Below are positions 12,659 to 61,811 of a stretch of 64,000 nt of DNA, piece by piece (position 1 is the first letter of the stretch; the number at the start of each line of letters is the position of its first letter). The position numbers and the translations under genes are program-made. The notes beneath the pieces are model-generated. The model was not told where the DNA came from and searched no databases. It was given only the letters and a program-made list of their open reading frames with translations. The stretch is from Escherichia phage ph0021. Location: the sequence record OP557970.1, one strand, 5' to 3'.

Positions 12659-14638
12659 ATGACTTTATTATCTCCGGGCATTGAGCTCAAAGAAACCACG
12701 GTTCAAAGCACCGTGGTTAATAACTCTACTGGTACAGCAGCTTTGGCCGGTAAATTCCAGTGGGGTCCTGCTTTTCAGATTAAACAGGTTACAAACGAAG
12801 TAGATTTAGTTAATACTTTTGGTCAACCTACAGCTGAAACTGCTGACTATTTTATGTCTGCGATGAATTTCTTGCAGTACGGAAATGACTTACGAGCAGT
12901 TCGTGCTGTTGATAGAGATACCGCTAAAAACTCATCGCCAATTGCTGGTAATATTGAATACACAATTTCTACCCCAGGTAGTAACTACGCGGTTGGAGAT
13001 AAAATCACGGTCAAATATGTTTCAGATGATATTGAAACTGAAGGTAAAATTACTGAAGTAGACGCAGATGGAAAAATTAAGAAAATTAATATTCCTACTG
13101 CAAAAATTATCGCTAAAGCGAAAGAAGTCGGTGAATATCCGGAATTAGGTTCTAACTGGACTGCGGAAATTTCTTCGTCTTCCTCTGGTTTAGCTGCAGT
13201 AATAACTCTTGGAAAAATTATTACTGATTCTGGTATTTTATTAGCTGAAATTGAAAATGCTGAAGCTGCTATGACAGCGGTTGACTTTCAAGCAAATCTT
13301 AAAAAATACGGAATTCCAGGAGTAGTAGCGCTTTATCCAGGCGAATTGGGCGATAAAATTGAAATTGAAATCGTATCTAAAGCTGACTATGCAAAAGGAG
13401 CTTCTGCATTACTCCCAATTTATCCGGGCGGTGGTACTCGCGCATCTACTGCTAAAGCAGTGTTTGGATATGGACCACAAACTGATTCACAGTACGCTAT
13501 TATAGTTCGTCGCAATGATGCTATTGTTCAAAGCGTTGTTCTTTCAACTAAGCGTGGTGAAAAAGATATTTACGATAGTAACATCTATATCGATGACTTT
13601 TTCGCAAAAGGCGGCTCAGAATATATTTTTGCAACTGCGCAAAACTGGCCAGAAGGCTTCTCTGGAATTTTAACTCTGTCTGGTGGATTATCATCAAATG
13701 CTGAAGTAACAGCAGGAGATTTGATGGAAGCTTGGGACTTCTTTGCTGACCGTGAATCCGTTGATGTTCAGCTGTTTATTGCGGGTTCTTGTGCCGGTGA
13801 ATCTTTAGAAACAGCATCTACTGTCCAAAAACACGTCGTTTCAATTGGGGATGCTCGCCAAGATTGCTTAGTATTGTGCTCTCCTCCGCGTGAAACTGTA
13901 GTTGGAATTCCTGTAACTCGTGCTGTTGACAACTTAGTCAACTGGAGAACCGCAACAGGTTCATACACTGATAATAACTTTAATATCAGTTCAACCTATG
14001 CAGCAATCGACGGCAACTACAAATATCAGTATGACAAATATAATGATGTGAATCGTTGGGTTCCATTAGCAGCTGATATTGCCGGTTTATGCGCAAGAAC
14101 TGATAACGTATCTCAGACTTGGATGTCTCCAGCTGGTTATAATCGTGGTCAGATTCTTAACGTTATTAAACTTGCTATTGAAACCCGCCAGGCTCAGCGC
14201 GACCGTTTATACCAAGAAGCTATCAACCCAGTAACTGGTACAGGTGGCGATGGTTACGTATTGTATGGTGATAAAACAGCTACTTCTGTTCCTTCTCCGT
14301 TTGATCGTATTAACGTTCGTCGTCTGTTTAATATGTTAAAAACGAATATCGGACGTAGTTCAAAATATCGTTTGTTCGAATTAAACAACGCGTTTACTCG
14401 TTCATCATTCCGCACAGAAACTGCCCAATACTTGCAGGGAATTAAAGCTCTCGGTGGAATTTATGAATATCGTGTAGTTTGCGATACAACAAATAATACT
14501 CCGTCAGTAATTGATAGAAATGAGTTTGTTGCAACATTCTACATTCAACCGGCTCGTAGTATAAATTATATCCAACTTAATTTCGTCGCAACTGCTACTG
14601 GTGCAGATTTTGATGAGTTAACTGGTCTTGCAGGTTAA
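12659..14638 (+). CDS. 18: contractile tail sheath protein gp18
   Basis: 659-aa ORF, T4 gp18 length; late promoter TATAAATA 30 bp upstream. Confidence 0.93.
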   Translation: MTLLSPGIELKETTVQSTVVNNSTGTAALAGKFQWGPAFQIKQVTNEVDLVNTFGQPTAETADYFMSAMNFLQYGNDLRAVRAVDRDTAKNSSPIAGNIEYTISTPGSNYAVGDKITVKYVSDDIETEGKITEVDADGKIKKINIPTAKIIAKAKEVGEYPELGSNWTAEISSSSSGLAAVITLGKIITDSGILLAEIENAEAAMTAVDFQANLKKYGIPGVVALYPGELGDKIEIEIVSKADYAKGASALLPIYPGGGTRASTAKAVFGYGPQTDSQYAIIVRRNDAIVQSVVLSTKRGEKDIYDSNIYIDDFFAKGGSEYIFATAQNWPEGFSGILTLSGGLSSNAEVTAGDLMEAWDFFADRESVDVQLFIAGSCAGESLETASTVQKHVVSIGDARQDCLVLCSPPRETVVGIPVTRAVDNLVNWRTATGSYTDNNFNISSTYAAIDGNYKYQYDKYNDVNRWVPLAADIAGLCARTDNVSQTWMSPAGYNRGQILNVIKLAIETRQAQRDRLYQEAINPVTGTGGDGYVLYGDKTATSVPSPFDRINVRRLFNMLKTNIGRSSKYRLFELNNAFTRSSFRTETAQYLQGIKALGGIYEYRVVCDTTNNTPSVIDRNEFVATFYIQPARSINYIQLNFVATATGADFDELTGLAG

Positions 14639-14644
14639 TTGATT

Positions 14645-15283
14645 ATGGGGCTTCGGCCCCTATTCTCGAGGAAACAAGTGATTATTTCTAAGTTTGTTAC
14701 AATAAAACCAAGAAATCATTCAAAAATGTGGTCGACAATTCTGGGATATAAAGTATCATATCATGATACAGTATCTGTTCCAATAGAATTAATGCCAAAG
14801 AATAGTAATAAAATAGTTGACGCTAAATGTGATTTGTGTGGTACTAAATTTAGTAGAAGCATTCAACTTTTAAATAGAACACCCACACATGCATGTAGAA
14901 AATGTAGCATTAAACAAGTTGCTATTAAAAATTCTGAAGTTCAATCTGGAATAAGCAGACCATGGCAAAGAGGTGATAAACATCCTCGATGGACTGGTAA
15001 AAGAAAAGAGTTTGCATTATATGCTAGTAGAGTTCATTCTATAACTAAGTCAGCTAAAATAAGAAAAATCTGGTCAAAATGGCCGAATGCTGATAAAATA
15101 GGAGTGTGTGGCGTAGAAGGTGCTTACCAACTCGATCATAAAGTATCTATCAAATATGGATTTGATAATTTAATTCCGCCGGAAATTATAGCAAGCGTAA
15201 AAAATTTAGAAATAATCACTTGGGAATCTAACCGAGAAAAGTCAAAAAGAAATAGCGTAGATCTTTGGGATTTACTAGAATGA
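14645..15283 (+). CDS. free-standing HNH-family homing endonuclease-like protein inserted between genes 18 and 19
   Basis: Cys-rich zinc-ribbon segment (CDLCGTKFS...CRKCS) followed by an HNH-like core (QLDHKVSIKYGFDNL...NLEIITWESNREK). Start is ambiguous: ORF track opens at 14639 (TTG), first ATG at 14645, alternative ATG at 14726. Confidence 0.7.
   Translation: MGLRPLFSRKQVIISKFVTIKPRNHSKMWSTILGYKVSYHDTVSVPIELMPKNSNKIVDAKCDLCGTKFSRSIQLLNRTPTHACRKCSIKQVAIKNSEVQSGISRPWQRGDKHPRWTGKRKEFALYASRVHSITKSAKIRKIWSKWPNADKIGVCGVEGAYQLDHKVSIKYGFDNLIPPEIIASVKNLEIITWESNREKSKRNSVDLWDLLE
14647..14660 (+). terminator. hairpin after gene 18 (upstream flank of the HNH insert)
   Basis: GGGGC-TTCG-GCCCC tetraloop hairpin 9 nt after the gp18 stop. 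Confidence 0.4.
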
Positions 15284-21260: not shown

Positions 21261-21275
21261 TCTTTGACGATTTAA

Positions 21276-21300
21276 GGGACCTTCGGGTCCCTTTAGTTGT
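21276..21300 (+). terminator. intrinsic terminator after gene 23
   Basis: GGGACC-TTCG-GGTCCC hairpin followed by a T-rich tract. Confidence 0.65.
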
Positions 21301-21308
21301 TTTTATGG

Positions 21309-21316
21309 TATAAATA
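21309..21316 (+). promoter_or_regulatory. late promoter for gene 24
   Basis: TATAAATA about 28 bp upstream of the gp24 ATG. Confidence 0.65.
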
Positions 21317-21343
21317 AATCATATAAACCAAAAGGAAAGCGCA

Positions 21344-26063: not shown

Positions 26064-26076
26064 AATATTTCCTCAG

Positions 26077-26084
26077 TATAAATA
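26077..26084 (+). promoter_or_regulatory. late promoter for uvsW
   Basis: TATAAATA about 30 bp upstream of the uvsW ATG. Confidence 0.6.
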
Positions 26085-26113
26085 TAGATATATTTATTAC
26101 ATGGTATTTAGAC

Positions 26114-27625
26114 ATGACTGACATTAAAGTACATTTTTATGATTTTAGTCACGTGAGAATTGATTGTGAAGAAAGTACATTTCATGAACTCCGTGATTTC
26201 TTTAGCTTTGAAGCTGATGGGTATCGTTTTAATCCGAAGTACAGATATGGCCACTGGGATGGACGAATCCGTCTGTTAGATTATAATCGTCTTCTTCCAT
26301 TCGGCTTAGTCGGGCAAATTAAAAAGTTCTGTGATAACTTTGGCTATAAAGCCTGGATTGACCCACAAATTAACGAAAAAGAAGAATTATCAAGAAAAGA
26401 TTTTGATGAATGGCTTTCTAAATTAGAAATCTATTCAGGAAATAAAAGAATTGAACCCCACTGGTATCAAAAAGATGCAGTGTTCGAAGGATTAGTTAAT
26501 CGTCGTAGAATTCTTAATCTTCCAACTTCGGCTGGTAAATCTTTAATTCAAGCTTTGCTTGCGCGATATTATTTTGAAAATTATGAAGGTAAAATTCTTA
26601 TCATTGTTCCAACAACTGCTCTGACAACTCAGATGGCTGATGACTTCGTCGACTATCGTCTATTCAGTCATGCAATGATAAAGAAAATTGGTGGCGGAGC
26701 ATCAAAAGATGATAAATATAAAAATGATGCGCCAGTCGTTGTTGGTACATGGCAAACTGTAGTAAAACAACCAAAAGAATGGTTCTCACAGTTTGGAATG
26801 ATGATGAATGATGAATGCCATCTTGCTACAGGAAAAAGTATTTCATCTATCATATCAGGATTAAATAACTGTATGTTTAAATTTGGTCTATCTGGTTCAT
26901 TACGTGATGGCAAAGCCAATATCATGCAGTATGTTGGAATGTTCGGTGAAATATTTAAGCCAGTAACGACTTCTAAGTTAATGGAAGATGGACAAGTAAC
27001 TGAGCTAAAAATTAATAGTATTTTTCTTCGTTATCCTGATGAGTTCACTACTAAATTAAAGGGAAAAACTTATCAAGAAGAAATAAAAATTATTACGGGG
27101 CTTAGTAAAAGAAATAAATGGATCGCTAAATTAGCTATTAAGCTTGCGCAGAAAGATGAAAACGCTTTTGTCATGTTTAAACATGTATCGCATGGTAAAG
27201 CTATTTTCGATTTAATTAAAAATGAATACGATAAAGTTTATTACGTATCAGGGGAAGTTGATACCGAAACCCGCAATATAATGAAAACCTTAGCTGAAAA
27301 TGGTAAAGGAATAATTATAGTAGCTAGTTATGGTGTATTTTCTACTGGTATTTCAGTTAAAAATCTGCATCATGTTGTTTTAGCGCACGGTGTTAAATCA
27401 AAAATCATTGTATTACAAACAATCGGTCGTGTATTACGTAAGCATGGTTCTAAAACAATTGCAACAGTCTGGGACCTCATAGATGACGCAGGCGTCAAGC
27501 CAAAATCTGCTAATACGAAAAAGAAATATGTTCATTTGAACTATCTTTTAAAACACGGCATTGATCGTATTCAGCGCTACGCAGATGAAAAATTTAATTA
27601 CGTAATGAAAACAGTTAATTTATAA
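26114..27625 (+). CDS. uvsW: UvsW DNA/RNA helicase (SF2)
   Basis: 503-aa ORF with Walker A (TSAGKS) and DECH box; T4 UvsW length. Confidence 0.92.
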   Translation: MTDIKVHFYDFSHVRIDCEESTFHELRDFFSFEADGYRFNPKYRYGHWDGRIRLLDYNRLLPFGLVGQIKKFCDNFGYKAWIDPQINEKEELSRKDFDEWLSKLEIYSGNKRIEPHWYQKDAVFEGLVNRRRILNLPTSAGKSLIQALLARYYFENYEGKILIIVPTTALTTQMADDFVDYRLFSHAMIKKIGGGASKDDKYKNDAPVVVGTWQTVVKQPKEWFSQFGMMMNDECHLATGKSISSIISGLNNCMFKFGLSGSLRDGKANIMQYVGMFGEIFKPVTTSKLMEDGQVTELKINSIFLRYPDEFTTKLKGKTYQEEIKIITGLSKRNKWIAKLAIKLAQKDENAFVMFKHVSHGKAIFDLIKNEYDKVYYVSGEVDTETRNIMKTLAENGKGIIIVASYGVFSTGISVKNLHHVVLAHGVKSKIIVLQTIGRVLRKHGSKTIATVWDLIDDAGVKPKSANTKKKYVHLNYLLKHGIDRIQRYADEKFNYVMKTVNL

Positions 27626-27637
27626 GGGCTTCGGCCC
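27626..27637 (+). terminator. hairpin between uvsW and uvsW.1
   Basis: GGGC-TTCG-GCCC immediately after the uvsW stop, followed by TTT and a GGAG ribosome-binding site. Confidence 0.4.
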
Positions 27638-27650
27638 TTTGGAGAAAAAG

Positions 27651-27881
27651 ATGTTACTAGAATTTAAACAATTTCTTTATGAAGCTTCTATTGATGAATT
27701 TATGGGTAAAATTGCCTCTTGTCAAACATTAGAAGGTTTAGAAGAACTTGAAGCTTATTATAAGAAAAGAGTTAAAGAAACAGAACTCAAAGATACTGAT
27801 GATATCTCAGTCAGAGATGCTTTGGCAGGAAAAAGAGCTGAATTAGAAGATTCAGACGATGAAGTAGAAGAAAGCTTTTAA
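27651..27881 (+). CDS. uvsW.1: UvsW.1 small acidic protein
   Basis: 76-aa ORF from ATG at 27651 with GGAG ribosome-binding site; ORF track opens at a TTG at 27639. Confidence 0.7.
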   Translation: MLLEFKQFLYEASIDEFMGKIASCQTLEGLEELEAYYKKRVKETELKDTDDISVRDALAGKRAELEDSDDEVEESF

Positions 27882-36502: not shown

Positions 36503-36532
36503 ACTATAACACAACACGAGGGACTTGTAAAC
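36503..36532 (-). promoter_or_regulatory. early promoter (GTTTAC-N17-TTATAGT)
   Basis: Minus-strand -35 GTTTAC and -10 TATAGT upstream of the 96-aa ORF; near-identical to the alc promoter. Confidence 0.6.
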
Positions 36533-38589
36533 TACATTTTGAACTTTTTAGACATTCCGTTGATGTTAACCAAAGAAGTCAAGATTTGAGAAACTTCATT
36601 TTCCTCTTCTTTTGATTCTTCTACAAGGAATTGATTAAATCCAGCCATTGGACGAACTTCACCAGTTTCCATTAGATGGTCTCCATCATATACTGATTCT
36701 TCTAATTGTTCAGAAGGAGGAACGATTGTACCTTCGATTAGATACTTGTTATAAGCAGTTTCTTTCATAAAGTACGTACTTACTTTATTAATCTTCAGTA
36801 AAATTCCACGTGGTAGAATAACTTCAGCTTCTGACGGAAATCCTGATAAATGACCTGGAACGATAACTTTGATTCGCTCAGCTCCTTTAATTACCATACC
36901 CACGCTAGTTTCTGCATCTTCATTAGCATATGTAGAATGACTACCCATATGCATCAAATCTTCTGCATCAACGGAACCTTCTCCTTCACCAGAAAATACT
37001 GCGCCGGAATCATCTAGAGCCATATAGTTTTTACCATGCTCACCGAAGATATTTGGTTTAAGCGATGTGGATACGAAGTTCTTGAAATAGAACATTTTAT
37101 TTTCAATGTTATGACGCAAAGTTTTAAAGGTAACTTCTTGCCCACGGTAAAGTGTAGTTCCTGGAGGAAGAACTGATCCTTTGGCAAAGGCAGAATCTAA
37201 CGTCTCGATGTGCTTAATAGCTCGTTCCATGTATTCTTCACGGGTAGAATCTGGTTTACCCAAAAGGAACGAGTTCATTTCAACATATGAATCTGCACAA
37301 TAATCTTCAATTACATCAGATTCAGCCTGAGTCAGTCCTTTTGGAGCTACTTCGGTGCTTGCGTATTCATATGCCTGGGCAGCAGATTCATTAATCAATT
37401 TATAAATGCCATTCATGACAAATTGAATAATAGCTGTCTTTTCATCTGGTGTGGTTTTAGAACCTTTAACTAAATCATTAATAATTTTCTTAATAACATC
37501 AAAGCTATTAGAAATATTAATGTCAGCAAGATCGCTTAAAATTTTATCAGTTTTATAATCAAAGAATTCTTTATTCTTTAAATATTCTTGAGAACCTTGA
37601 TATGTTATATCGCTCTGCAACTTGATAGATGGATCACGTAAACGTGCATGGGCTAATGCAATATGATTTCGGAAACTTTCTAGTTCATAATCGTTAGATT
37701 TAAAACGAAAAGCACTTCTCATACCACCGATAGCTCCTTTGCTGAAGTTTGAACCAATCTGAATAACGCCAGAGTTCATTGGTCCTTCTGCTTTATATAC
37801 CGGAACTTTAGATTCAAATTCTTGATATTTCTTAGCAGCGAAGCTATCACCCTGAAGTGAAGCATCAACAGTAGAATATTGAGCTTGTGCTGCTAATCGA
37901 CGACTAATTTTAGTTTTCTGAATAACAGCTTGATCCGTGCGCTTATCATTTTCTAAAGCAATAGAAGCAGCAACAGCAACAGCTTTAGGAACAGCATTAC
38001 CTGTTTTAACGTCTACATAAACATCACCAACCTTTGATTCAACTTTTGTGAATAACTCGGTTGAAATAGGAGGTACACCTGGAATGTCTTCTAAATTGGC
38101 ATTTTTACGGTAAACCATAATATATGCGTACTTTTTATCATAATCCCAGATTTCCTTTAAAAGAACATATCGACCTGCTCCTTTAGTACGTACTAAACGG
38201 TCAGCAATAACTTGCATTTGACGAGCTGCGCCATTTGTTTTACTTTTTAGTACGCGGAATAGGCATGCATCAATTTTATACTGCTTCATTGTTTGAAGAG
38301 CAGTATCAAAAACAGCATTAATGACGCCAATTGGATTTCCACCCAAGTTTTTAAGCTTAACTAATGATAGTTTCTCATTAACACCTATCATTACGATATG
38401 CATCATTTTGTCGCCTGGCTTAACGTTTTTATTCGTATCACCGCCAGAGGTGTATGTACAAAATCTAAATCCAGGAAGCACGCTTTCTTCACCTGCTTGA
38501 ATAGCAAAAATTTGAGGTATTTTATGCTTAGGATTTAAGTTAACAACCGGCGCCGAAGCGCCGTCAAATAATTCTGTAATAAGTTCCAT
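36532..38589 (-). CDS. Alt-like ADP-ribosyltransferase paralog (second copy)
   Basis: 685-aa ORF; N-terminus MELITELFD... parallels Alt; retains candidate R-S-E class motifs (LYRGQ, FVSTSL, SEAEVILPRG). Confidence 0.8.
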   Translation of the reverse strand: MELITELFDGASAPVVNLNPKHKIPQIFAIQAGEESVLPGFRFCTYTSGGDTNKNVKPGDKMMHIVMIGVNEKLSLVKLKNLGGNPIGVINAVFDTALQTMKQYKIDACLFRVLKSKTNGAARQMQVIADRLVRTKGAGRYVLLKEIWDYDKKYAYIMVYRKNANLEDIPGVPPISTELFTKVESKVGDVYVDVKTGNAVPKAVAVAASIALENDKRTDQAVIQKTKISRRLAAQAQYSTVDASLQGDSFAAKKYQEFESKVPVYKAEGPMNSGVIQIGSNFSKGAIGGMRSAFRFKSNDYELESFRNHIALAHARLRDPSIKLQSDITYQGSQEYLKNKEFFDYKTDKILSDLADINISNSFDVIKKIINDLVKGSKTTPDEKTAIIQFVMNGIYKLINESAAQAYEYASTEVAPKGLTQAESDVIEDYCADSYVEMNSFLLGKPDSTREEYMERAIKHIETLDSAFAKGSVLPPGTTLYRGQEVTFKTLRHNIENKMFYFKNFVSTSLKPNIFGEHGKNYMALDDSGAVFSGEGEGSVDAEDLMHMGSHSTYANEDAETSVGMVIKGAERIKVIVPGHLSGFPSEAEVILPRGILLKINKVSTYFMKETAYNKYLIEGTIVPPSEQLEESVYDGDHLMETGEVRPMAGFNQFLVEESKEEENEVSQILTSLVNINGMSKKFKM

Positions 38590-38592
38590 GAT

Positions 38593-40686
38593 TTATCCTT
38601 GAACGAACTTGTAAGGCATGTTTGTAATATCTATGCAAGACGCAATAATTCCAAGAGATGATTCTACTTTCTGTTTAATATTTGATGAAACAAATGATGC
38701 AAAGTCAACTCTGTCTTCTATTTCAATATCACCTGTCATTGCAACCAATTCACCAGTTTCCATTAAATGGTCTCCATCATAGATTACCGATTCGGTGAGC
38801 TCTTCCGTGGTCATAACTTCAGCTTGAATGAGTTTTGTATTATTAGATGTTGTTCCGTCATTATTAGAAGCATCGGTTATTTTATTAACTTTGACCATCA
38901 ATCCACGCGGTAGAATAACTTCAGCTTCTGTTGCTATTCCGAGACTTCCTGGATATACAACATTAACTTTATGAGCTCCATCAATTGCCCATCCTATTTG
39001 AACTTTAACATATTCAGGATTTTCTTTATACGCTCTTATTTCGTTTGGATTAATAGTTATTCCTTCTTCATTTTTATCAACTGTTAATTCATTGCGAGCT
39101 TCTGGTTCTAAAAGACCAATACCAGCATGTGTGATTCCAAAACGTCCAAAAATGATAGGAGTTAAAGAAGTAGATACAAAATTTCTGAAGTAGAACACTT
39201 TATTTTTAACTAACGCTTCATATATAGGAGCAGTCATACTTTGAGCACGATAAACTGTAATGCCTTCTGGTATACGGTCACCATTTTCAAAAGCTGAATC
39301 TAAGTTATTTATAGCAGATTCAATTTCTTTTTCACTCATTACATCGTATCGTTCTGGATTGTAACGACCTAAAAGAAGATTATTGATGTCAGTATATCCT
39401 GAACCGCAATATTCTCTAATGCCACGCTTTTGTGATGGAGTATATTTAGAACCATCGCGGGCAATAGTAATATCAATCATTGGACCAGCACCAATTCCAG
39501 AAAAACTGTAAATCATTCGTTTGAGGAATTTAGTTTTTGCTGCGTTCCAGGAATTTTTAGTTATTTCTTCCCAGACTTCATCTGGTTGTCCTTTACGATT
39601 TTTATTATGATTAGCAAGCCATTTATCTTTATAATCTTCAAAGAATTGATTTACAGCTGCTGCGTATTTCTCTAAACATTTTATTGAAGTAGTTGGTTCA
39701 TTTTTAATTGCATTAAAAATTACTTCTTTAATTTTTTCTGAAACTTCACCGACTTGACTCATTGGAAAGAATTTATAATCATAGTGAAGTTCATCTGCCG
39801 TTCCTTCAGCAATAATTTTTGCTGCCTTTGTTTTAGAAGCTAATGAATTAATTCCAATTTTCATTTCTTCTGCTTCGGGAATTAAAGGTGCAGTAGCTGG
39901 TTTATTAAAATTGGCTGCTGTAGATTCATACTTCTGGAATAATTCACTTTCAAATCTAGAAGATTCCAATGACTGACTTTGTGCAATTGCTCTACGGGAA
40001 ATTTTAACTTTAACGATTACAGCTTGGTCAGAACGTTTATCATTTTCTTGTGCAATAGATGCTGCAATTGCTTCATTTTTAGTTACTTGAGCTCCAGTAT
40101 CTTTATTGATATAAACATCACCGACCTTCGATTCAACTTTAGTAAAGAGTTCAGTGCTAATTTCTGGAACTCCTGGAATGTCTTCTAATGATACATTTTT
40201 GCGATGTATAAGAATATATGCATACTTTTTATCGTAATCCCAGAGTTCCTTAAGAAGGACGTATCTGCCACCTGAACGACTACGGATAAGTCTATCAGCA
40301 ATAACTTGAATTTGTCGAGCTTGGCCAGCAGTTTTAGACTTAAGAATACGAAGCATGCAGGCATCAATTTTATATTGACGCATCGTTTGCATTGCAACAG
40401 TAAAAACTGAATTGATATAATTAATTGGGCTTGGACCAAGACCTTTTAATTTAGCAATTGAGCCTTTAGCAGTTAATGTAAAAGGAACAATATGCATCAT
40501 TTTATCGCCCATCTTTAAATCGCGATTAGTATCACCTCCAGATGTATAGGTACATAAACGAAAGCCTGGTTGTTCAATTGCATCATCAACATGAACTGAA
40601 AAAATTTGTGGTATTTTCTTCTTTGGATTTAAGTTTGTAATCGGAAGAGTAGTATCTTCGTCAAATAATTCTGTAATAAGTTCCAT
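38593..40686 (-). CDS. alt: Alt, head-packaged mono-ADP-ribosyltransferase
   Basis: 697-aa ORF starting MELITELFDEDTTLPITNLNPKKKIPQIF; motifs VYRAQ, FVSTSL, TEAEVILPRG; late promoter upstream. Confidence 0.9.
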   Translation of the reverse strand: MELITELFDEDTTLPITNLNPKKKIPQIFSVHVDDAIEQPGFRLCTYTSGGDTNRDLKMGDKMMHIVPFTLTAKGSIAKLKGLGPSPINYINSVFTVAMQTMRQYKIDACMLRILKSKTAGQARQIQVIADRLIRSRSGGRYVLLKELWDYDKKYAYILIHRKNVSLEDIPGVPEISTELFTKVESKVGDVYINKDTGAQVTKNEAIAASIAQENDKRSDQAVIVKVKISRRAIAQSQSLESSRFESELFQKYESTAANFNKPATAPLIPEAEEMKIGINSLASKTKAAKIIAEGTADELHYDYKFFPMSQVGEVSEKIKEVIFNAIKNEPTTSIKCLEKYAAAVNQFFEDYKDKWLANHNKNRKGQPDEVWEEITKNSWNAAKTKFLKRMIYSFSGIGAGPMIDITIARDGSKYTPSQKRGIREYCGSGYTDINNLLLGRYNPERYDVMSEKEIESAINNLDSAFENGDRIPEGITVYRAQSMTAPIYEALVKNKVFYFRNFVSTSLTPIIFGRFGITHAGIGLLEPEARNELTVDKNEEGITINPNEIRAYKENPEYVKVQIGWAIDGAHKVNVVYPGSLGIATEAEVILPRGLMVKVNKITDASNNDGTTSNNTKLIQAEVMTTEELTESVIYDGDHLMETGELVAMTGDIEIEDRVDFASFVSSNIKQKVESSLGIIASCIDITNMPYKFVQG

Positions 40687-48214: not shown

Positions 48215-48447
48215 AGTACGCCATACACCCTTTGTGCTTCAACTAATCCATCAAAATCCAATTTAAGATGCGATATTTGATCGCCATCACCTGGATTCAC
48301 AATTACTAATACTGAACGAGGAGTTTCGGTAATAACACGAACCGATGTTTCAGGAAATCGTTCAGAAACCTTATTTACTAATTCCTGCGCAAATAGTTTA
48401 ACTTTTTCTTGAAATTCTTTAACAGTAATTGGTTTTTCACTTAGCAT
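48211..48447 (-). CDS. hypothetical protein (cd.x cluster)
   Basis: 78-aa ORF. Confidence 0.5.
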   Translation of the reverse strand: MLSEKPITVKEFQEKVKLFAQELVNKVSERFPETSVRVITETPRSVLVIVNPGDGDQISHLKLDFDGLVEAQRVYGVL

Positions 48448-48983
48448 GTTGATCCCAGCTCCTTACTTTCAACGTTTTTAACTAATTTGACAGAAACTAA
48501 TTCAGCATCTTGGGTAATCATTACTGGACCTTCTTCATACTCTTCAAGATATTCTAGAGCTTTCTTTTTAGCTTCTTCCTTCGTATCAGTTTGAGCATAG
48601 ATATAAAACATACAACCAGTAATACCTACTACTTTCCATTTAATTTCTTTATCAGTTTTAATTTCAAATTTACTGACAGAATCATCTTTTTGAACTTCTT
48701 CGAAAAAATAATATTCTGACATATAAGTAATTGAAAACAACGGGCTATCTTTATAGCATTCGCCCATTACATCAACAGCTTTATACCAGTAATCGTCAAT
48801 TTCGCGTTTAATGCTAATAACATTCTTCGCAGGATCAATTTTTACTTTAAATGAATTTTCATCAATAAACTGGGCAATTCGTTTATTAGCCCCACAGGTT
48901 TCATTAAAAATATCTTTATATCCAGCTTTAAAGCGATAAACCTTATCTTCTTCAAACCATTCGCTCATTTTCAATTTCCTCAT
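48441..48983 (-). CDS. hypothetical protein (cd.x cluster)
   Basis: 180-aa ORF with early promoter upstream. Confidence 0.6.
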   Translation of the reverse strand: MRKLKMSEWFEEDKVYRFKAGYKDIFNETCGANKRIAQFIDENSFKVKIDPAKNVISIKREIDDYWYKAVDVMGECYKDSPLFSITYMSEYYFFEEVQKDDSVSKFEIKTDKEIKWKVVGITGCMFYIYAQTDTKEEAKKKALEYLEEYEEGPVMITQDAELVSVKLVKNVESKELGSTC

Positions 48984-49699: not shown

Positions 49700-50792
<1,093 letters not shown>

Positions 50793-50888
50793 TTAATACT
50801 ACCCCACGGTCCAAATCCATATATACTGCACCATTGCATGCATCAATGTAACGGTCTGAACATTCAATATAACGTTCTAACAGAGCTT

Positions 50889-51119
50889 TCATTTATTTTT
50901 CTCAACTAATGATTGAATATAATCATGCAGATCTTTAGACGCCTTAGCCCAATTATTTTGATATTCATTTTTAAGATTAGCACGTGATTGAGCTAATAAA
51001 ACATCATTAGTTGGAGGTAAAGATTCTAACCGCTGAATCTGGCGTCCGTAAATCATTGCAGCCATCTCGGATTCATAAATCAATCCTTTGAGATGTTCAA
51101 ATTGATGCCATGAAATCAT
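50889..51119 (-). CDS. hypothetical protein
   Basis: 76-aa ORF downstream of the spanin pair. Confidence 0.5.
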   Translation of the reverse strand: MISWHQFEHLKGLIYESEMAAMIYGRQIQRLESLPPTNDVLLAQSRANLKNEYQNNWAKASKDLHDYIQSLVEKNK

Positions 51120-53938: not shown

Positions 53939-55117
53939 TTAAAAGTATTTTTTAAAACTCATCATAACTTTATCATCAACATCATTATCAATCTGTGCAA
54001 CAAGGTAAGATGACAATTCTACTTCTTGTGGCGCAGATTGAACATTATCAGAATTAAGATATTCACGAATCCAAGGATATGGATGTTTAACCGGAGCATC
54101 GGTAATTGGGCATGGAAGACCACACTGTTTCATACGAGATACAGTTAAGTAATCAATAAAGCTCCACATGCTATTTGTATTTAATCCAGGAACATCGCCA
54201 TCTTTAAATAAATGAACTGCCCAGTCTTTTTCCTGGCGGTTAACTTCCATGAAAATATCAACTGCTTCTTGTTCACACTCTTGAGCAATTTTAACCCATT
54301 CATCGCCATCAGTACCGGATTGAAGCTGACGAATAATATATTGGGTGCCTTTAAGGTGAAGCTGCTCATCACGTGCAATGAACTTCATAATCTTGGCATT
54401 ACCTTCCATGATTTCCATGTTCTTATGGAAGTTAAAGGTACATGCAAAAGATACATAAAAACGAATAGCTTCCAATGCGTTGATTACATGCAAACAGAGG
54501 TAAAGAGATTTCATTAGCTCACGCTTCCAATATGTCTCATGCTCAATAGCATCTTCAATAACGTCTTCGTCTGCATTAATTTCTTTTTGGTATTCGATAT
54601 CAGCTTTAGCGTTTTCCCAATAACGAGTTTTAGTCAGAACATCATCATAATAACGTCCAATGGATTCAGCACGTTTCATAATAGCTTCATCTAATACAAT
54701 CTCATCAAATACCTTTGACGGATCAGTATAAAGATTTCGCATGATATGGGTATATGAACGGCTGTGAATAGTTTCACTAAAAGTCCATGTAGCAACCCAT
54801 GTATCAAGACTTGGGTCTGAAATTAACGACATAAGTACAGCAGACGGTGCACGACCTTGAATGCTATCTAGAAGTGATTGATACTTCAGGTTATTAGTAA
54901 AAATATCTTGCTGATATTGAGGAAGCTTGTTAAATTGCGCAGCATCCATCATTAAGTTTACTTCTTCAGGACGCCAGAAAAATGACAACTGCTTTTCGGT
55001 TAAATCTTCAAAAACTTTATGACGTTGAATATCGTAACGCGCAATACCAAGACCTGAACCGAAGAACATAGGTTCTTTTAAAACATCAACTGGATTTGTA
55101 TTAAAAACTGTAGACAT
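53939..55117 (-). CDS. nrdB: ribonucleotide reductase small subunit NrdB, uninterrupted (no intron)
   Basis: 392 aa from MSTVFNTNPVD; continuous reading frame; TAATG overlap with the mobE stop. Confidence 0.93.
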   Translation of the reverse strand: MSTVFNTNPVDVLKEPMFFGSGLGIARYDIQRHKVFEDLTEKQLSFFWRPEEVNLMMDAAQFNKLPQYQQDIFTNNLKYQSLLDSIQGRAPSAVLMSLISDPSLDTWVATWTFSETIHSRSYTHIMRNLYTDPSKVFDEIVLDEAIMKRAESIGRYYDDVLTKTRYWENAKADIEYQKEINADEDVIEDAIEHETYWKRELMKSLYLCLHVINALEAIRFYVSFACTFNFHKNMEIMEGNAKIMKFIARDEQLHLKGTQYIIRQLQSGTDGDEWVKIAQECEQEAVDIFMEVNRQEKDWAVHLFKDGDVPGLNTNSMWSFIDYLTVSRMKQCGLPCPITDAPVKHPYPWIREYLNSDNVQSAPQEVELSSYLVAQIDNDVDDKVMMSFKKYF

Positions 55118-55848
55118 TAATTTTTCCTCTTTAAAATTCTGCCGCGTTTCCAACCTGGCGGTATAATATCATCTTTACCTATAAGCGTGCATTCACTTCC
55201 ATTATTAATCCATTTCTTACCGCGGATTCCTTTATAATCTCTTGGCTGTATTTTGTCAAACTTTGCGTCAAGCTGATATGCCCATCGAAATCCATAGGCA
55301 TATTGAAATTTACCCTCAGCACAATATTTGATATTTGACCCGTTTCCATTAACTGACCTGGACGCTGCGGCAATAGAGTGAAAGGTTTCTATGAAATCCC
55401 CATCTAATGAGAATTTATGTATTTCGATAGATGGGCATGCATACCTATTCACATTTGATACATGTTGTTTAGTTTCGTTTTTATGATGCTTGCCTAACAT
55501 TCCTCTAGGATGAGGATTATTTTTCCAATATTTCTTAAAGAAATCAGAATTAGCTTTAGCAAATAATTTTCTGTGCAAGCTATACAATCTGTTATTAATT
55601 CTATTACCAGCTTTATCTGTTGCCATTAACGTTAACGCAGAGGCAAGACCAAAATGGCCTTCATTTATCTTGCATAGTAATAGATGCGCTATAAAATGTT
55701 CTCTAGCTGTTAATTCAACTAAATTTTCTTTATCATCAGAACCTCCCATGCATTTAGGGACTATATGATGTGTCTCTTTATATTCGGATAAAGGTTCCCG
55801 AGCCTGAGCTCGGGAAATTAGGTCATTATAGATTTTTTGATAATTCAT
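55117..55848 (-). CDS. mobE: MobE-like HNH homing endonuclease between nrdA and nrdB
   Basis: 243-aa ORF with classical HNH motif ETHHIVPKCMGGSDDKENLVELTAREHFIAH. Confidence 0.85.
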   Translation of the reverse strand: MNYQKIYNDLISRAQAREPLSEYKETHHIVPKCMGGSDDKENLVELTAREHFIAHLLLCKINEGHFGLASALTLMATDKAGNRINNRLYSLHRKLFAKANSDFFKKYWKNNPHPRGMLGKHHKNETKQHVSNVNRYACPSIEIHKFSLDGDFIETFHSIAAASRSVNGNGSNIKYCAEGKFQYAYGFRWAYQLDAKFDKIQPRDYKGIRGKKWINNGSECTLIGKDDIIPPGWKRGRILKRKN

Positions 55849-58112
55849 TACAATTTACACGCTGCACAATCGTCGGCTTTAGGAGTTTCTATTTCATAAT
55901 CATCAGTACCAGAACCATCACGGGTATTATGATAATAGAAATTTTTAATGCCATAATACCATCCGTATAGCATGTCATCAATCATTATTGACATTGGAAC
56001 CTTTCCTTTTGGAAAAATCTGCGGGTCATAATATGTATTCGCTGAAGCTGATTGACATACCCATTTCAGCATAATAGCTACCTGCGTAAGATAAGGTTTA
56101 TTACCTTTCTTAGCTAATTTCCATGTATAATCATAGAGGTCTATGTTATGCTCAATATTGGGCACGACTTGATTAAAGGAACCCTCTTTTGATTCTTTAA
56201 CAGAGACTGGTCCACGTGGAGGCTCGATACCGTTTGTACTGTTAGAAACTTGGGAAGATGACTCACATGGCATAAGTGCTGATAATGTGCTATTACGGAT
56301 GCCAAAGAGCTTAAGGTCTTCCCGCAGCGCCGACCAGTCACAAACGTATTTTGGAGCTGCGATTTGGTCAATCTTTTTATTGTACCAGTCGATAGGTAAT
56401 TCGCCTCGAGACCAACGAGTGTCTGAATAATATTCGCAAGGTCCTTTTTCTTTGGCGAGCTTAATGGATGCTTTAATGAGTCCATACTGTAATCTCTCAA
56501 ATAGTTCATGTGTTAAATCGTTAGCATCTTCATAAGAAGCAAAGTTACTTGCCAGCCAAGCTGCATAGTTAGTAACACCTACACCGAGGTTACGACGCTT
56601 TTTAGCTTTTTCTGCTTCAGGAACTGGATATCCTTGGTAATCCAAAAGATTATCAAGAGCACGAACTTGGACTTCTGCCAATTCATTAATTTTATCTTGG
56701 TCTTGCCAGTCAAAATTATCCAGTACGAATGCAGAGAGAGTACACAATCCAATTTCAGCATCAGGACTATTCACATCATTTGTTGGAATAGCAATTTCAC
56801 AACACAAGTTACTCTGACGAATAGGTGCCTTTTCACGAATAAACGGAGTATAATTATTCGTATTATCGATGAACTGCACATAAATCCTTGCTGTTCCTGA
56901 GCGTTCAGTCATGAGCAATTCAAATAGTTCACGGGCTTTAATGCGCTTTTTACGAATATTAGGGTCTTTTTCTGCTGCTTCGTATAATTCGCGGAAACGG
57001 TCTTGGTCTTTAAAATAAGAATAATAAAGCTCGCCACCCATTTCATGCGGACTGAACAAAGTAATGTAGTCGTTCTTTCCAAAACGTTCCATCATCAAAT
57101 CATTCAGCTGGACGCCATAATCCATATGACGGATACGGTTTTCTTCTACACCTTTGTTATTTTTCAAAACGAGAAGATTTTCAACTTCCAAATGCCAAAT
57201 AGGATAATAAGCAGTAGCAGCGCCGCCACGAATTCCACCCTGTGAGCATGATTTAACAGCAGTCTGAAAATGTTTCCAAAAAGGAATAACACCAGTATGG
57301 CGTACTTCACCCATGCCAATCTTGGAACCTTCGGCACGAATCATACCAACGTTAATACCAATTCCAGCACGTTTGGAGATATATTCAACAATTGAAGCGG
57401 AAGCCTTATTGATAGACTTTAATGAATCACCTGCCTCAATAACAACACATGAACTAAACTGTCGAGTCGGAGTACGACAACCAGCCATAATAGGAGTTGG
57501 TAATGAAATCTGTCGAGTAGATACTGCTTCATAAAAATGAATAACATGTTTTAATCTATCAACAGGTTCATCTTGATGCAATGCCATTCCAATAGTCATA
57601 AATGCAAACTGTGGAGTTTCATAAATTTGACCAGTGGTTTTATCTTTAACTAGATATTTTTCTTTTAATTGCATCGCCCCGGAATAAGTAAATTCCATAT
57701 CCCGCTCATGCTTAATTTTTGATTCTAAAAATGTAATTTCTTCTGCTGAATATTTTGACAATAATTCAGGGTCATATTTACCTTCATTTACACAGTAAGA
57801 AATATGGTCAATAAATGAACATGGTTCATACTGTCCGTACACATGTTTACGAAGAGCGAACATTAGACAACGTGCAGCTACATATTGATAATCAGGCTCT
57901 TCAACCGAAATAGAATTCGCAGCGGCCTTAATGACAATAGTCTGAATATCATCAGTTGTCATTCCATCACGGAGATAAGATTTAATATTTTCATATAATT
58001 CATAAGGATCGACTGATGTTCCTTCAGCTGCCCAAGATAAAACTTTAATAATTTTTTGTGGGTCAAAGCTCTGAGAAACACCACTACTTTTGATAACATT
58101 AATTAATTGCAT
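55848..58112 (-). CDS. nrdA: ribonucleotide reductase large subunit NrdA
   Basis: 754-aa ORF, T4 NrdA length; conserved class Ia features and C-terminal CxxC. Confidence 0.95.
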   Translation of the reverse strand: MQLINVIKSSGVSQSFDPQKIIKVLSWAAEGTSVDPYELYENIKSYLRDGMTTDDIQTIVIKAAANSISVEEPDYQYVAARCLMFALRKHVYGQYEPCSFIDHISYCVNEGKYDPELLSKYSAEEITFLESKIKHERDMEFTYSGAMQLKEKYLVKDKTTGQIYETPQFAFMTIGMALHQDEPVDRLKHVIHFYEAVSTRQISLPTPIMAGCRTPTRQFSSCVVIEAGDSLKSINKASASIVEYISKRAGIGINVGMIRAEGSKIGMGEVRHTGVIPFWKHFQTAVKSCSQGGIRGGAATAYYPIWHLEVENLLVLKNNKGVEENRIRHMDYGVQLNDLMMERFGKNDYITLFSPHEMGGELYYSYFKDQDRFRELYEAAEKDPNIRKKRIKARELFELLMTERSGTARIYVQFIDNTNNYTPFIREKAPIRQSNLCCEIAIPTNDVNSPDAEIGLCTLSAFVLDNFDWQDQDKINELAEVQVRALDNLLDYQGYPVPEAEKAKKRRNLGVGVTNYAAWLASNFASYEDANDLTHELFERLQYGLIKASIKLAKEKGPCEYYSDTRWSRGELPIDWYNKKIDQIAAPKYVCDWSALREDLKLFGIRNSTLSALMPCESSSQVSNSTNGIEPPRGPVSVKESKEGSFNQVVPNIEHNIDLYDYTWKLAKKGNKPYLTQVAIMLKWVCQSASANTYYDPQIFPKGKVPMSIMIDDMLYGWYYGIKNFYYHNTRDGSGTDDYEIETPKADDCAACKL

Positions 58113-58669: not shown

Positions 58670-58981
58670 TTACACCGCCATTTTTCCTTTCAAGACGCCG
58701 TGGGACTGATAATCTTTGAGAACGAAATCTTTAGGCCTGAGTTTAAGAATGTATTCCAATTGTTCTTTAGTAGAAAGATAGCGGAATTTATAAGGCAATC
58801 CGCCTATTATCAGTTCACAAAGCTCTTTAGGTTCACGACGCAAAATTTCTTTACATTGTTCTACGTGATTCATATAGATATGAGTATTACCGCCAGAAAA
58901 TATCAAATCTCCAGGAATAAGATTACACATCTTAGCTACAATATGAACTAACGCAGCATATGATGCAATATTAAATGGAAG
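58670..58981 (-). pseudogene. td: thymidylate synthase td, exon 2 only (exon 1 absent)
   Basis: Encodes LPFNIASYAALVHIVAKMCNLIPGDLIFSGGNTHIYMNHVEQ...KGKMAV, the conserved ThyA C-terminal region; no N-terminal ThyA coding sequence anywhere upstream. Confidence 0.85.
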
Positions 58982-59128
58982 CATTATGTTCAGATAAGGT
59001 CGTTAATCTTACCCCGGAATTATATCCAGCTGCATGTCACCATGCAGATCAGACTATATCTCCAACTTGTTAAAGCAAGTTGTCTATCGTTTCGAGTCAC
59101 TTGACCCTACTCCCCAAAGGGATAGTCG
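58982..59128 (-). mobile_element. 3' portion of the td group I intron (catalytic core up to the 3' splice site)
   Basis: Minus-strand sequence ...GGGTCAAGTGACTCGAAACGATAGACAACTTGCTTTAACAAGTTGGAGATATAGTCTG...GGGGTAAGATTAACGACCTTATCTGAACATAATG, recognised as the T4 td intron 3' end, abutting exon 2. Confidence 0.8.
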
Positions 59129-59380
59129 TTAGGCATTTATGTAGAACCAATTCCATTTATCAGATTTTACACGATAAGTAACTAATCCAGACGAAATTTT
59201 AAAATGTCTAGCTGCATCTGCTGCACAATCAAAAATAACCCCATCACATTCATCTTCCCATCCCATATCACGTAAAAGATGTTCAGCTTTTTCAACGAGT
59301 TCAGAATCTTTACCAATGATATTAAAATACCATTTACCTCTAACTTCTGAATCTTTGATGCTCTGACGTTGTAATCTCAT
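59129..59380 (-). CDS. chimeric ORF: unknown 44-aa N-terminus fused to the C-terminal DNA-binding segment of I-TevI
   Basis: C-terminus CDGVIFDCAADAARHFKISSGLVTYRVKSDKWNWFYINA matches the I-TevI C-terminal HTH region; the GIY-YIG catalytic domain is absent; early promoter and AAGGAG ribosome-binding site upstream. Confidence 0.75.
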   Translation of the reverse strand: MRLQRQSIKDSEVRGKWYFNIIGKDSELVEKAEHLLRDMGWEDECDGVIFDCAADAARHFKISSGLVTYRVKSDKWNWFYINA

Positions 59381-61178: not shown

Positions 61179-61811
61179 TCATAGCTGGCATAATTCACAA
61201 TACTCTGGGTCTTCGAGAGGTATCCAACCTGAGTTGAAATACTTTACCATCGATTTAGCAGTTGTATCAGTTATATTTATATTACCCTTAACTCTTCGCC
61301 ATCCAGGAGTTTTACCGTACAGATTAGAGGATAATAATAACACATAATTCTCGTAAGCAATATGAGATAATTTCCAAGACTCTATATTAGCTCGTGATGT
61401 TTTCCAAGGTCTAAAATCGTCACGGTTCATATAATTAGCCAATCTCATATGCTCTCTAACTTCCGGGTCTTTGGCTGGATGAGTTTCACCACTCACACCA
61501 AATCCGCCGCCAGCATATACCAGATTAAAATAGTCTGGATTATCTCTGGCATTTACTTCAAGTTGGTATTTTCGCTCTGCTTCAATAACATCCAAATCAT
61601 CATCAATTTGAATTATTTTAACGCTCGGTTTTTGAAGCATTACCGCATTTAAAAATCTTTTTTGTTTACATGAGCTCCAGTATTCCTTTCCGGAAGAGTC
61701 ATATATTATTCCATTCTCAAATGAGCAATTTAATTTACTACCGATATAGTAGTACGGCGGAGTCTTATTTTTGACACGGTCTTCAAATGTAAACCAATAT
61801 ACTATATTCAT
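61179..61811 (-). CDS. segG: GIY-YIG homing endonuclease (SegG-like) between genes 59 and 32
   Basis: 210-aa ORF with GIY-YIG-type N-terminus (IVYWFTF...PPYYYIGSK); occupies the position of T4 segG. Confidence 0.7.
   Translation of the reverse strand: MNIVYWFTFEDRVKNKTPPYYYIGSKLNCSFENGIIYDSSGKEYWSSCKQKRFLNAVMLQKPSVKIIQIDDDLDVIEAERKYQLEVNARDNPDYFNLVYAGGGFGVSGETHPAKDPEVREHMRLANYMNRDDFRPWKTSRANIESWKLSHIAYENYVLLLSSNLYGKTPGWRRVKGNINITDTTAKSMVKYFNSGWIPLEDPEYCELCQL

Follow-up and report, generated by a model that had tools for sequence, protein, structure and literature searches.

The junction between nrdA and nrdB in this phage holds a gene for a MobE-like endonuclease next to an nrdB without an intron, raising the question of how far its homing endonuclease content departs from that of T4 and whether such a departure marks a lineage. 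The DNA analysed here (the window) is 64,000 nt long and is matched at 100% identity by the published genome of the Tequatrovirus 'Pseudomonas phage PsgM02F' (OR584013.1). The nearest relatives besides PsgM02F are only ~96-97% identical to the window, so that the PsgM02F genotype is distinct. In a blastn comparison the window and T4 are identical or collinear overall, with discrete indels, and the window covers six endonuclease loci of T4 as well as one extra locus, between genes 18 and 19. A sequence-only reading of this DNA had compared it with a T4 map that is right at all five loci concerned: the T4 annotation names segD, segE, I-TevIII, mobE, I-TevI and segG, and Table 1 of PMC2988022 agrees with it. 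The differences from T4 claimed there (no segD, no segE and no nrdB intron) and all the junction observations hold, one gap length aside. However, the mosaic of presence and absence described in that reading stands only for these three absences, since mobE and segG are also T4 genes and neither makes a presence/absence difference, that at mobE being one of allele. Three points escaped that reading: the RB3 type of this mobE allele, the ORF between genes 18 and 19, and a deletion at td/I-TevI. The endonuclease gene set in the window is smaller than, and different from, that of T4. Very probably, the window is part of an ordinary Tequatrovirus genome whose endonuclease set differs through sporadic selfish insertions.

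The nrdB gene (53939-55117, minus strand; ORF list) is, as had been proposed, one uninterrupted ORF of 1179 nt and 392 codons, collinear with the intronless nrdB of T2 and equal to it in length. A MAFFT alignment of the window, T2, T4 and RB3 places the empty intron insertion site at 54441-54442 (minus strand), where exon 1, ending in ...TTTTGCAT, is followed by GTACC... of exon 2. Around this site the window and T2 agree at every position over 47 nt upstream and 60 nt downstream, and a 1,091-column gap in its nrdB lies opposite the introns of T4 and RB3; the T4 intron at the same position is roughly 600 nt long (T4 138458-139057). The group I intron expected after ...TTTTGC(G/A)T was not found in nrdB, where the ORF is continuous and Rfam gave no match, and across the window as a whole no Rfam family came up to its gathering score. 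The nrdB of T2, the natural recipient in I-TevIII homing and in MobE-driven trans-homing, is the same as that of the window both at the insertion site and over nt 91-160. In T2, which lacks mobE, the spacer between nrdA and nrdB is 51 nt long, whereas the window carries an RB3-type mobE there. Exon 1 of nrdB in the window resembles that of T2 (97%) more than that of RB3 (94%), and such a T2-like exon beside an RB3-like mobE indicates recombination within 100 nt. In published T4 x T2 crosses some of the progeny carried mobE but lacked the intron.

The mobE gene (55117-55848, minus strand) encodes 243 aa, which comprise an HNH module at the N-terminus, a basic tail at the C-terminus and a NUMOD1 domain. 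The MobE-like HNH gene that had been described between nrdA and nrdB, with a TAATG overlap onto nrdB, is borne out, and TAATG occurs at both of its ends: read directly, the mobE/nrdB overlap is AAAAATTAATGTCT and the overlap with nrdA (55848-58112, minus strand; ORF list) is TTGTAATGAATT, at 55846-55850. There the mobE start overlaps the nrdA stop (UAAUGA), as it does in T4 (PMC2988022). The protein matches PHROG 655 'homing endonuclease' (E=1e-57) and Pfam NUMOD1 (E=1.1e-5); its Pfam HNH match (E=1.3e-3, 19.3 bits) lies under the curated cut-off of 21.4 bits. MobE of RB3 (AIT72962.1), likewise of 243 aa, differs from it by one residue and has the same position and the same one-base TAATG overlaps, but in RB3 an nrdB intron with an intact I-TevIII lies downstream of mobE. 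The layout of the window, nrdA-mobE-uninterrupted nrdB, was seen in five of the six RB3-type carriers sampled.

With T4 MobE the window has in common the locus, the overlap of nrdA stop and mobE start, the HNH head, a hairpin near the 5' end and the changes at the 3' end of nrdA. In a four-way alignment, residues 1-60, the HNH head, are nearly those of T4-type MobE, the differences being at V30, K32, L56, L57 and C59. The C-terminal ~180 residues are unrelated to T4-type MobE, whose tail bears three NUMOD3 motifs and a zinc finger in place of the NUMOD1 domain and basic tail of the window. In NC_000866 the mobE of T4 is annotated as split (mobE and nrdB.1), whereas RB55 and ECO4 have a single ORF of 232 aa. 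Near its 5' end mobE contains a hairpin (55795-55816, minus strand; 9-bp stem, 4-nt loop; RNA fold -19.1 kcal/mol, z=-4.1), the counterpart of the weak hairpin terminator inside T4 mobE, about 27 nt past the AUG (PMC2790892). At its 3' end nrdA encodes …CAACKL followed by TAA in all mobE-bearing phages compared, the window included, whereas mobE-less T2 has …CSSCKL and TGA. Sandegren et al. reportedly made the first survey of mobE alleles in 2005.

At the segD and segE loci the window is empty. The gap between genes 23 and 24 (21261-21343, plus strand) lacks segD, as claimed, and is 83 nt long, not 84; it contains a terminator hairpin, a late promoter (TATAAATA) and a Shine-Dalgarno sequence. 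T4 has segD at 106561-107232, between 23 and 24, and T4 106521-107311 has no counterpart in the window by blastn. The inh-uvsW gap (26064-26113), read directly, has the 50 nt given for it earlier and no segE; in T4 segE lies at 112057-112674, between inh and uvsW, and T4 112044-112680 again has no blastn counterpart. No segD or segE ORF was found at the T4 positions, where the 83-nt and 50-nt gaps hold regulatory elements only. Amino-acid polymorphisms were seen at the N-terminus of uvsW. The SegG-like gene between genes 59 and 32 (61179-61811, minus strand) is, by identity, the T4 SegG ortholog: it has the same position and 209 of 210 aa identical (99.5%), with nothing notable differing in the window. 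It matches PHROG 7504 (E=2e-133), and as its GIY-YIG domain gave no Pfam or NCBIfam match, the family call comes from the identity to T4 and from PHROG 7504.

The extra locus is an ORF inserted between genes 18 and 19 (14645-15283, plus strand; 212 aa) and absent from T4 and T2. It probably encodes a free-standing HNH endonuclease with a four-cysteine zinc ribbon; across 29 homologues D164, H165, N187, N196, K199, C62 and C65 are invariant, and C84 and C87 nearly so. The ORF is sporadic, being present in 69 of 654 records, and always occupies a single defined point in the spacer between two conserved genes; its flanks are 98-100% identical to T4, which itself lacks it. T6ORF160, RB3_165 and PP01_171 (T6-like, between 18 and 19) have ~99% nucleotide identity to it and the same insertion point. 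The family is annotated just as 'hypothetical' (PHROG 5104, unknown function), the HNH assignment having been made in the present analysis, and it may, judging from these sequences, represent free-standing HNH homing endonucleases that had gone unrecognised. A sequence search of Pfam, NCBIfam and PDB gave nothing significant, only zinc-finger noise; a PDB profile search matched just the treble-clef region of trypanosome mS66; a profile-profile alignment with MobE gave nothing, and neither did Foldseek against PDB at E<=0.001. The 3' end of gene 18 differs from T4 by 15 substitutions in 43 nt, with one amino-acid change. This mostly synonymous hotspot was considered as a target-site signature of the ORF and rejected, not being cleanly tied to its carriage: RB3 has the ORF, yet its gene 18 haplotype is like that of T2, which has no ORF. 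The assignment gives a functional suggestion for a 'hypothetical' ORF that separates the tail sheath gene from the tail tube gene in about one in ten T4-like phages, T6 and RB3 among them.

The distribution of these elements among T4 relatives shows how ordinary each state is. Counts were taken from 50,697 phage records, with redundant and near-identical genomes included and a T4-like denominator that is approximate, at roughly 620-650. Among T4-like records segD is found in 55, segE in 159 and segG in 141; the nrdB intron is found in at most 191, nearly full length in 118, and the 3' part of the td intron in 271. RB3-type mobE is found in 54 records, and T4-type mobE in 21 in full and in ~50 in part. 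T4 itself is an outlier with 15 endonucleases (PMC2988022, a 2010 review), and therefore a smaller set is the usual one among its relatives. As homing endonuclease genes are sporadic selfish insertions that are gained and lost, a set unlike that of T4 is what would be expected, with homing and recombination during co-infection as the likely means of gain and loss. The empty segD, segE and nrdB intron/I-TevIII sites represent the majority state among T4 relatives, mobE is of the RB3 allele, and segG is essentially the gene of T4. The td intron with I-TevI was carried by an ancestor and later wrecked by a 2-kb microhomology deletion together with frd and td exon 1, and a probable HNH endonuclease gene of T6/RB3 type lies additionally between genes 18 and 19. 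The occupancy of each site, the types of the alleles, the junction sequences and the record counts are direct results of the present analysis.

At the td locus a loss can be read in the DNA. Only exon 2 of td is left (58670-58981, minus strand; T4 and T2 alignment), encoding the C-terminal 103 codons of thymidylate synthase, with Pfam Thymidylat_synt covering profile positions 176-266 only; exon 1 is deleted. Next to it lies a 268-nt remnant of the 3' part of the td group I intron (58982-59249, minus strand), which includes the last 40 I-TevI codons, aligns with T4 143547-143814 and is 100% identical to many td-intron phages; over 59030-59211 it matches Rfam Intron_gpI at 39.3 bits, under the gathering score of 50. 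About 2,051 bp are missing relative to T4 (143815-145864), comprising most of I-TevI, the 5' part of the intron, td exon 1, frd and the 3' end of frd.1. The GIY-YIG catalytic domain, the zinc finger and the 5' half of the T4 intron are gone along with td exon 1, and what is left of the intron can, on its sequence, neither splice nor home. The deletion junction (59241-59249) is CCATCACAT, aligning with CCATCGCAT in T4 frd.1, an 8-of-9 microhomology. Across it runs a chimeric ORF (59129-59380, minus strand; 83 aa) that joins, on comparison of the translations, Frd.1 residues 1-47 in frame to the C-terminal I-TevI helix-turn-helix (~206-245), with matches to Pfam DUF5417 (residues 1-47) and I-TevI_DNA-bd (residues 45-80, E=8e-24).

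Since the td remnant means that an ancestor once had the intron, one may ask whether the other empty sites likewise lost their elements secondarily, in descent from a T4-like ancestor rich in endonucleases, or were never invaded at all. The loss of a demonstrable intron and I-TevI by deletion agrees with such a history, as do the mobE-plus, intron-minus progeny of T4 x T2 recombination and the T2-like nrdB beside an RB3-like mobE. Nevertheless, the 23-24 and inh-uvsW gaps are clean, with functional-looking terminator and promoter elements and no remnant of segD or segE, and the empty segD/segE state is that of the majority. Precise loss and a site never invaded look alike in the present data, and we consider general secondary loss unlikely, although it is the strongest of the alternatives.

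A second alternative is that the td/frd deletion, and with it the chimera, arose in assembly or belongs to a minority deletion variant, in which case the genome of the phage stock would lack it. No other record among the 623 matching spans the junction, the deletion is unmentioned in the paper on PsgM02F, and the GenBank record has a 127-bp terminal overlap that is typical of an untrimmed circular short-read assembly. However, the junction is in frame and falls in an 8-of-9 microhomology, a signature of real illegitimate recombination rather than of a long-repeat mis-join, making an artefact improbable. The frd and td genes are dispensable in T4, and so a td/frd deletion mutant would be viable.

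The endonuclease pattern had also been taken to mark a distinct T-even lineage, which it does not, each state being common and patchy over the roughly 620-650 T4-like records. The PsgM02F genotype is distinct at ~96-97% from its nearest other relatives, and fFiEco06, fHoEco02, MLF4 and REP1 are collinear with the window over 12-37 kb and therefore, like it, carry the 18/19 ORF and have nothing at the segD and segE sites. Even so, a stable, vertically inherited signature is the least probable of the alternatives and hardly credible, given that every element is patchy in its own way (55 to 271 records), that RB3, which agrees with the window in its mobE allele, its 18/19 ORF and its empty 23-24 gap, has both the nrdB and the td intron, that in fFiEco06, collinear with the window in the late region, td/I-TevI is intact, that nrdB exon 1 and the adjacent mobE indicate recombination within 100 nt, that horizontal movement of these elements is shown in published work (including PMC2988022), and that partial data already point to the same combination in unrelated core-gene backgrounds. 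Sporadic insertion into an ordinary Tequatrovirus genome is thus the reading we retain, and no observation made here runs counter to it. Variable occupancy of endonuclease sites in T-even phages is already known, having been on record since 1987-1989 and reviewed in 2010, and the PsgM02F genome is already public. What is gained is a corrected and complete inventory of the endonuclease genes in this stretch of PsgM02F, together with a natural frd/td-deficient genotype.

Directional marker exclusion in crosses with T4, which had been predicted from the mosaic, fares differently from locus to locus. Exclusion by T4 is plausible in the mobE/nrdB region, where the nrdB of the window is that of T2 at both the T4 MobE nick site and the intron site, and, by analogy, at inh-uvsW (segE). 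Directional inheritance is not plausible for segD; SegD is reported not to initiate homing (Sokolov 2018). The segG gene is common to both phages, and at td the homing site is deleted in the window. Extending the published results on T4 and T2 to a mixed infection with this phage, one would predict that nrdB/mobE of the window, and probably inh-uvsW as well, become converted to the T4 type, and that the phage of the window could in turn pass its 18/19 gene to T4.

A further lead comes from the target of MobE. T4 MobE nicks the nrdB of T2 at nt 122-126 (PMC2790892, Wilson & Edgell 2009), corresponding to 54992-54996 (minus strand) in the window, and over nt 91-160 the window carries the T2, sensitive, allele. 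In a comparison of 15 mobE-carrying phages with mobE-less T2 as reference, carriers of T4-type and slur13-type mobE have 10-16 substitutions in nrdB nt 100-137, whereas the eight RB3-type carriers, the window among them, have 0-3. Among these 15 phages the substitution cluster at the nick site is found only beside MobE alleles with NUMOD3 and a zinc-finger tail. No polymorphism cluster specific to RB3-type MobE was found in the 3' end of nrdA or in nrdB nt 1-100. With another DNA-binding tail in RB3-type MobE, a different target site would be expected. One may therefore speculate, at a little under even chances, that RB3-type MobE is a natural domain swap, in which a T4-like HNH nicking head is joined to another DNA-binding tail and directed to another target.

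If this speculation is true, it is the DNA-binding tail, rather than the HNH head, that sets self-immunity at nt 100-137, a point of relevance to the bipartite recognition model that Wilson & Edgell proposed. In a co-infection of T4 and PsgM02F, T4 MobE should then nick nrdB and replace the adjoining rival mobE, a competition of endonuclease versus endonuclease at one locus. The nrdA-nrdB junction of this phage would thus offer a concrete, testable lead on what determines target choice and self-immunity in MobE.

The window is 100% identical over its full length to OR584013.1 ('Pseudomonas phage PsgM02F', a 165-kb Tequatrovirus published in 2024), and covers, oriented as in T4, the end of gene 7 through to rnh, or approximately 85.9-150.7 kb of T4. 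PsgM02F is labelled a Pseudomonas phage, though it is ~96-97% identical to many coliphages; according to its paper it plates on E. coli ATCC 25922 at an efficiency of only 0.11%, and shares the Tequatrovirus cluster with no other Pseudomonas virus. This host assignment deserves scrutiny. OR584013.1 carries the same 127 bp at both record ends, present as a single copy in the window (40361-40487), and the repeat looks like an untrimmed overlap of a circular assembly. The start/end of the GenBank record is crossed by the second of two full-length alt (ADP-ribosyltransferase) paralogues in tandem (36532-40686), which is annotated there merely as a misc_feature. T4 has one alt and the degenerate remnants alt.-1 and alt.-2.

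The sequence-only reading compared the homing endonuclease content of the window with a T4 map, and this map was right, agreeing with the NC_000866 annotation and with Table 1 of Edgell et al. 2010 (PMC2988022). As that reading had it, nrdB is one uninterrupted ORF of 1179 nt (53939-55117, minus strand), equal in length to and collinear with the intronless nrdB of T2. In T4 and RB3 the group I intron sits after ...TTTTGCGT, and at the same point the window reads ...TTTTGCAT followed by GTACC. At no point in the window does an Rfam family reach its gathering score. Codons ~140-205 of nrdB (54500-54700) show 79-84% identity to T2, T4 and RB3, and vary between phages by in-frame indels. The 23-24 gap (21261-21343) indeed lacks segD, which occupies this position in T4, but is 83 nt long and not the 84 first counted; it contains a GGGACC-TTCG-GGTCCC terminator, a TATAAATA late promoter and a Shine-Dalgarno sequence. 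The inh-uvsW gap is 50 nt (26064-26113), as noted from the sequence, without the segE that T4 has there. The adjoining uvsW (26114-27881) is annotated as two ORFs of 504 and 76 aa (UvsW and UvsW.1), and in T4 NC_000866 (112677-114440) as one 587-aa ORF with a sequence-discrepancy note; the UvsW N-terminus is MTDIKV in the window versus MDIKV in T4, with K41R, Y42F and H46N (window numbering) as further differences. Both endonuclease genes that had been recognised are in place: a 243-aa MobE-like ORF (55117-55848) fills the nrdA-nrdB space with a one-base TAATG overlap at each end, and a SegG-like gene of 210 aa (61179-61811), identical to T4 SegG at 209 of 210 residues, lies between 59 and 32.

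This mosaic had been taken to mark a distinct T-even lineage, a claim that is not supported, as its states are common among the roughly 620-650 T4-like records that match the flanking genes. Matches to segD were found in 55 of these records, to segE in 159, to the nrdB intron in 191 (118 nearly full length, and some outside the genus), to segG in 141 and to the 3' part of the td intron in 271. The RB3-type mobE, the allele of the window and RB3 that combines the HNH head of T4 MobE with another tail, was matched in 54, and the full-length T4-type mobE in 21. Most of the T4-like records therefore have empty segD, segE and nrdB-intron sites, and the endonuclease pattern of the window is not unusual. 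The 2010 review describes T4, with 15 endonucleases, as 'an oddity' that 'remains the outlier' (PMC2988022), and variable occurrence of the nrdB intron is on record since 1987. Crosses of T4 with T2 directly yield mobE-carrying progeny without the intron. Several phages are collinear with the window over 12-37 kb in a single alignment piece, and nrdB is also uninterrupted in five of six sampled carriers of the RB3-type mobE.

The MobE of the window differs from RB3 MobE by one residue, both proteins combining a NUMOD1 domain with a basic tail. Residues 1-60, the HNH module, are nearly identical to those of T4 MobE, and the hairpin terminator inside the 5' end of T4 mobE is kept, whereas from residue 61 on the two proteins are unrelated, the T4-type tail having three NUMOD3 motifs and a zinc finger. 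In another type, 'slur13' (213 aa), two NUMOD3 motifs accompany the zinc finger of the T4 type. Changes at the 3' end of nrdA relative to the mobE-less T2 are common to all three types. In NC_000866, T4 mobE (141 aa) and nrdB.1 (83 aa) are annotated as separate genes; RB55 and ECO4, 2 bp different here, have a single 232-aa mobE ORF with three NUMOD3 motifs and the zinc finger, and the split in the T4 reference probably reflects an error in the sequence or its annotation.

Wilson & Edgell (PMC2790892) mapped a T4-MobE-dependent nick to nt 122-126 of T2 nrdB, and proposed that polymorphisms at nt 114-131 shield mobE carriers. The window is identical to T2 over nt 91-160. With T2 as the reference for 15 sampled mobE carriers, the RB3-type carriers (n=8) show 0-3 differences over the 38 positions of nt 100-137, and the T4-type (n=3) and slur13-type (n=4) carriers show 10-16. 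The pattern suggests that RB3-type MobE is inactive at the T4-MobE nick site, and that T4 MobE would nick the nrdB of the window phage. With mobE and the nick site in tight linkage, co-inheritance alone could give this association, and the carrier sample is small. Exon 1 of nrdB in the window is 97% identical to T2 and 94% to RB3, and the adjoining mobE is 97-100% RB3-like, which places a recombination boundary at or close to the point where mobE meets nrdB.

Relative to T4 and T2, the window carries a 643-bp insertion (14640-15282) with a 212-aa ORF (14645-15283) between genes 18 (tail sheath) and 19 (tail tube). The ORF occurs in 69 of 654 matching records (~10% of T4-like records), including T6 (T6ORF160), RB3 and PP01, and is annotated as hypothetical in every case. 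The 52 homologues found contain no Pfam domains. In an alignment of 29 homologues, C62, C65, D164, H165, N187, N196 and K199 are invariant and C84 and C87 nearly so; judging from this conservation, they constitute an HNH-like D-H...N...N motif and a four-Cys ribbon. AlphaFold models the protein with confidence (mean pLDDT 88); Foldseek and Pfam were negative for it, as were PDB profile searches. The ORF is a probable free-standing HNH (homing) endonuclease gene. A 43-nt stretch at the 3' end of gene 18 (14545-14587) differs from T4 at 15 positions and yields only one amino-acid change; divergence over the gene as a whole is 3.8%. The resemblance of this mostly synonymous hotspot to an endonuclease target site is suggestive; the hotspot fails to separate carriers of the ORF from non-carriers because RB3 has both the ORF and the T2-like haplotype. 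Also inserted relative to T4 are 528 bp between cd.2 and cd.3 (48441-48983), coding for a 180-aa protein of PHROG 3710 (unknown function, no Pfam or NCBIfam match) that is also found in RB3 (RB3_214), and ~283 bp between pseT and pseT.1 (50604-50892) with two 47-codon ORFs, where RB3 has one 100-aa ORF.

At td and frd, ~2,051 bp of T4 (143815-145864) are absent from the window; codons 1-205 of I-TevI and the 5' part of the td intron are lost with them, as are td exon 1, frd and the 3' end of frd.1. In the td remnant (58670-59249), td exon 2 (58670-58981) is retained together with the last 268 nt of the intron, on which the Rfam Intron_gpI model scores 39.3 bits, under its gathering score. This remnant shows that an ancestor carried the td intron. 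At the junction (59241-59249) is an 8-of-9 microhomology, CCATC[A/G]CAT, where both parental sequences code for Cys-Asp-Gly. The in-frame fusion creates an 83-aa ORF (59129-59380) that joins Frd.1 residues 1-47 (DUF5417 in Pfam) to the helix-turn-helix of I-TevI (I-TevI_DNA-bd, residues 45-80 of the ORF, E=8e-24). That the deletion is an assembly artefact is unlikely, since the junction is in frame and in microhomology. Of the 623 matching records, none but this one spans the junction. From its sequence, the PsgM02F isolate is predicted to have neither thymidylate synthase nor dihydrofolate reductase of phage origin. T4 can do without either enzyme on wild-type hosts. The PsgM02F paper is silent on thymidylate synthase, homing endonucleases and the deletion.

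In established homing, the endonuclease cuts or nicks the endonuclease-less allele in a co-infecting genome, and double-strand-break repair then copies the endonuclease gene with its flanking markers, resulting in localised marker exclusion. The directional exclusion that had been predicted for crosses with T4 is reasonable only locus by locus. By analogy, T4 segE should be over-inherited, and so should the T4 mobE/nrdB-intron block, whose target sequences in the window are T2-identical. The 23/24 region should not be over-inherited; SegD is reported not to initiate homing (Sokolov 2018). segG would be neutral because it is present in both phages, the usual homing of the td intron is impossible with its homing site gone, and the ORF between genes 18 and 19 might move into T4.

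The phenomenon and the genome are both already known. Modest leads remain: mobE tail type is associated with the cluster at the nrdB nick site, a probable HNH gene separates the genes for tail sheath and tail tube, and a unique deletion from frd to td creates a Frd.1::I-TevI chimera.
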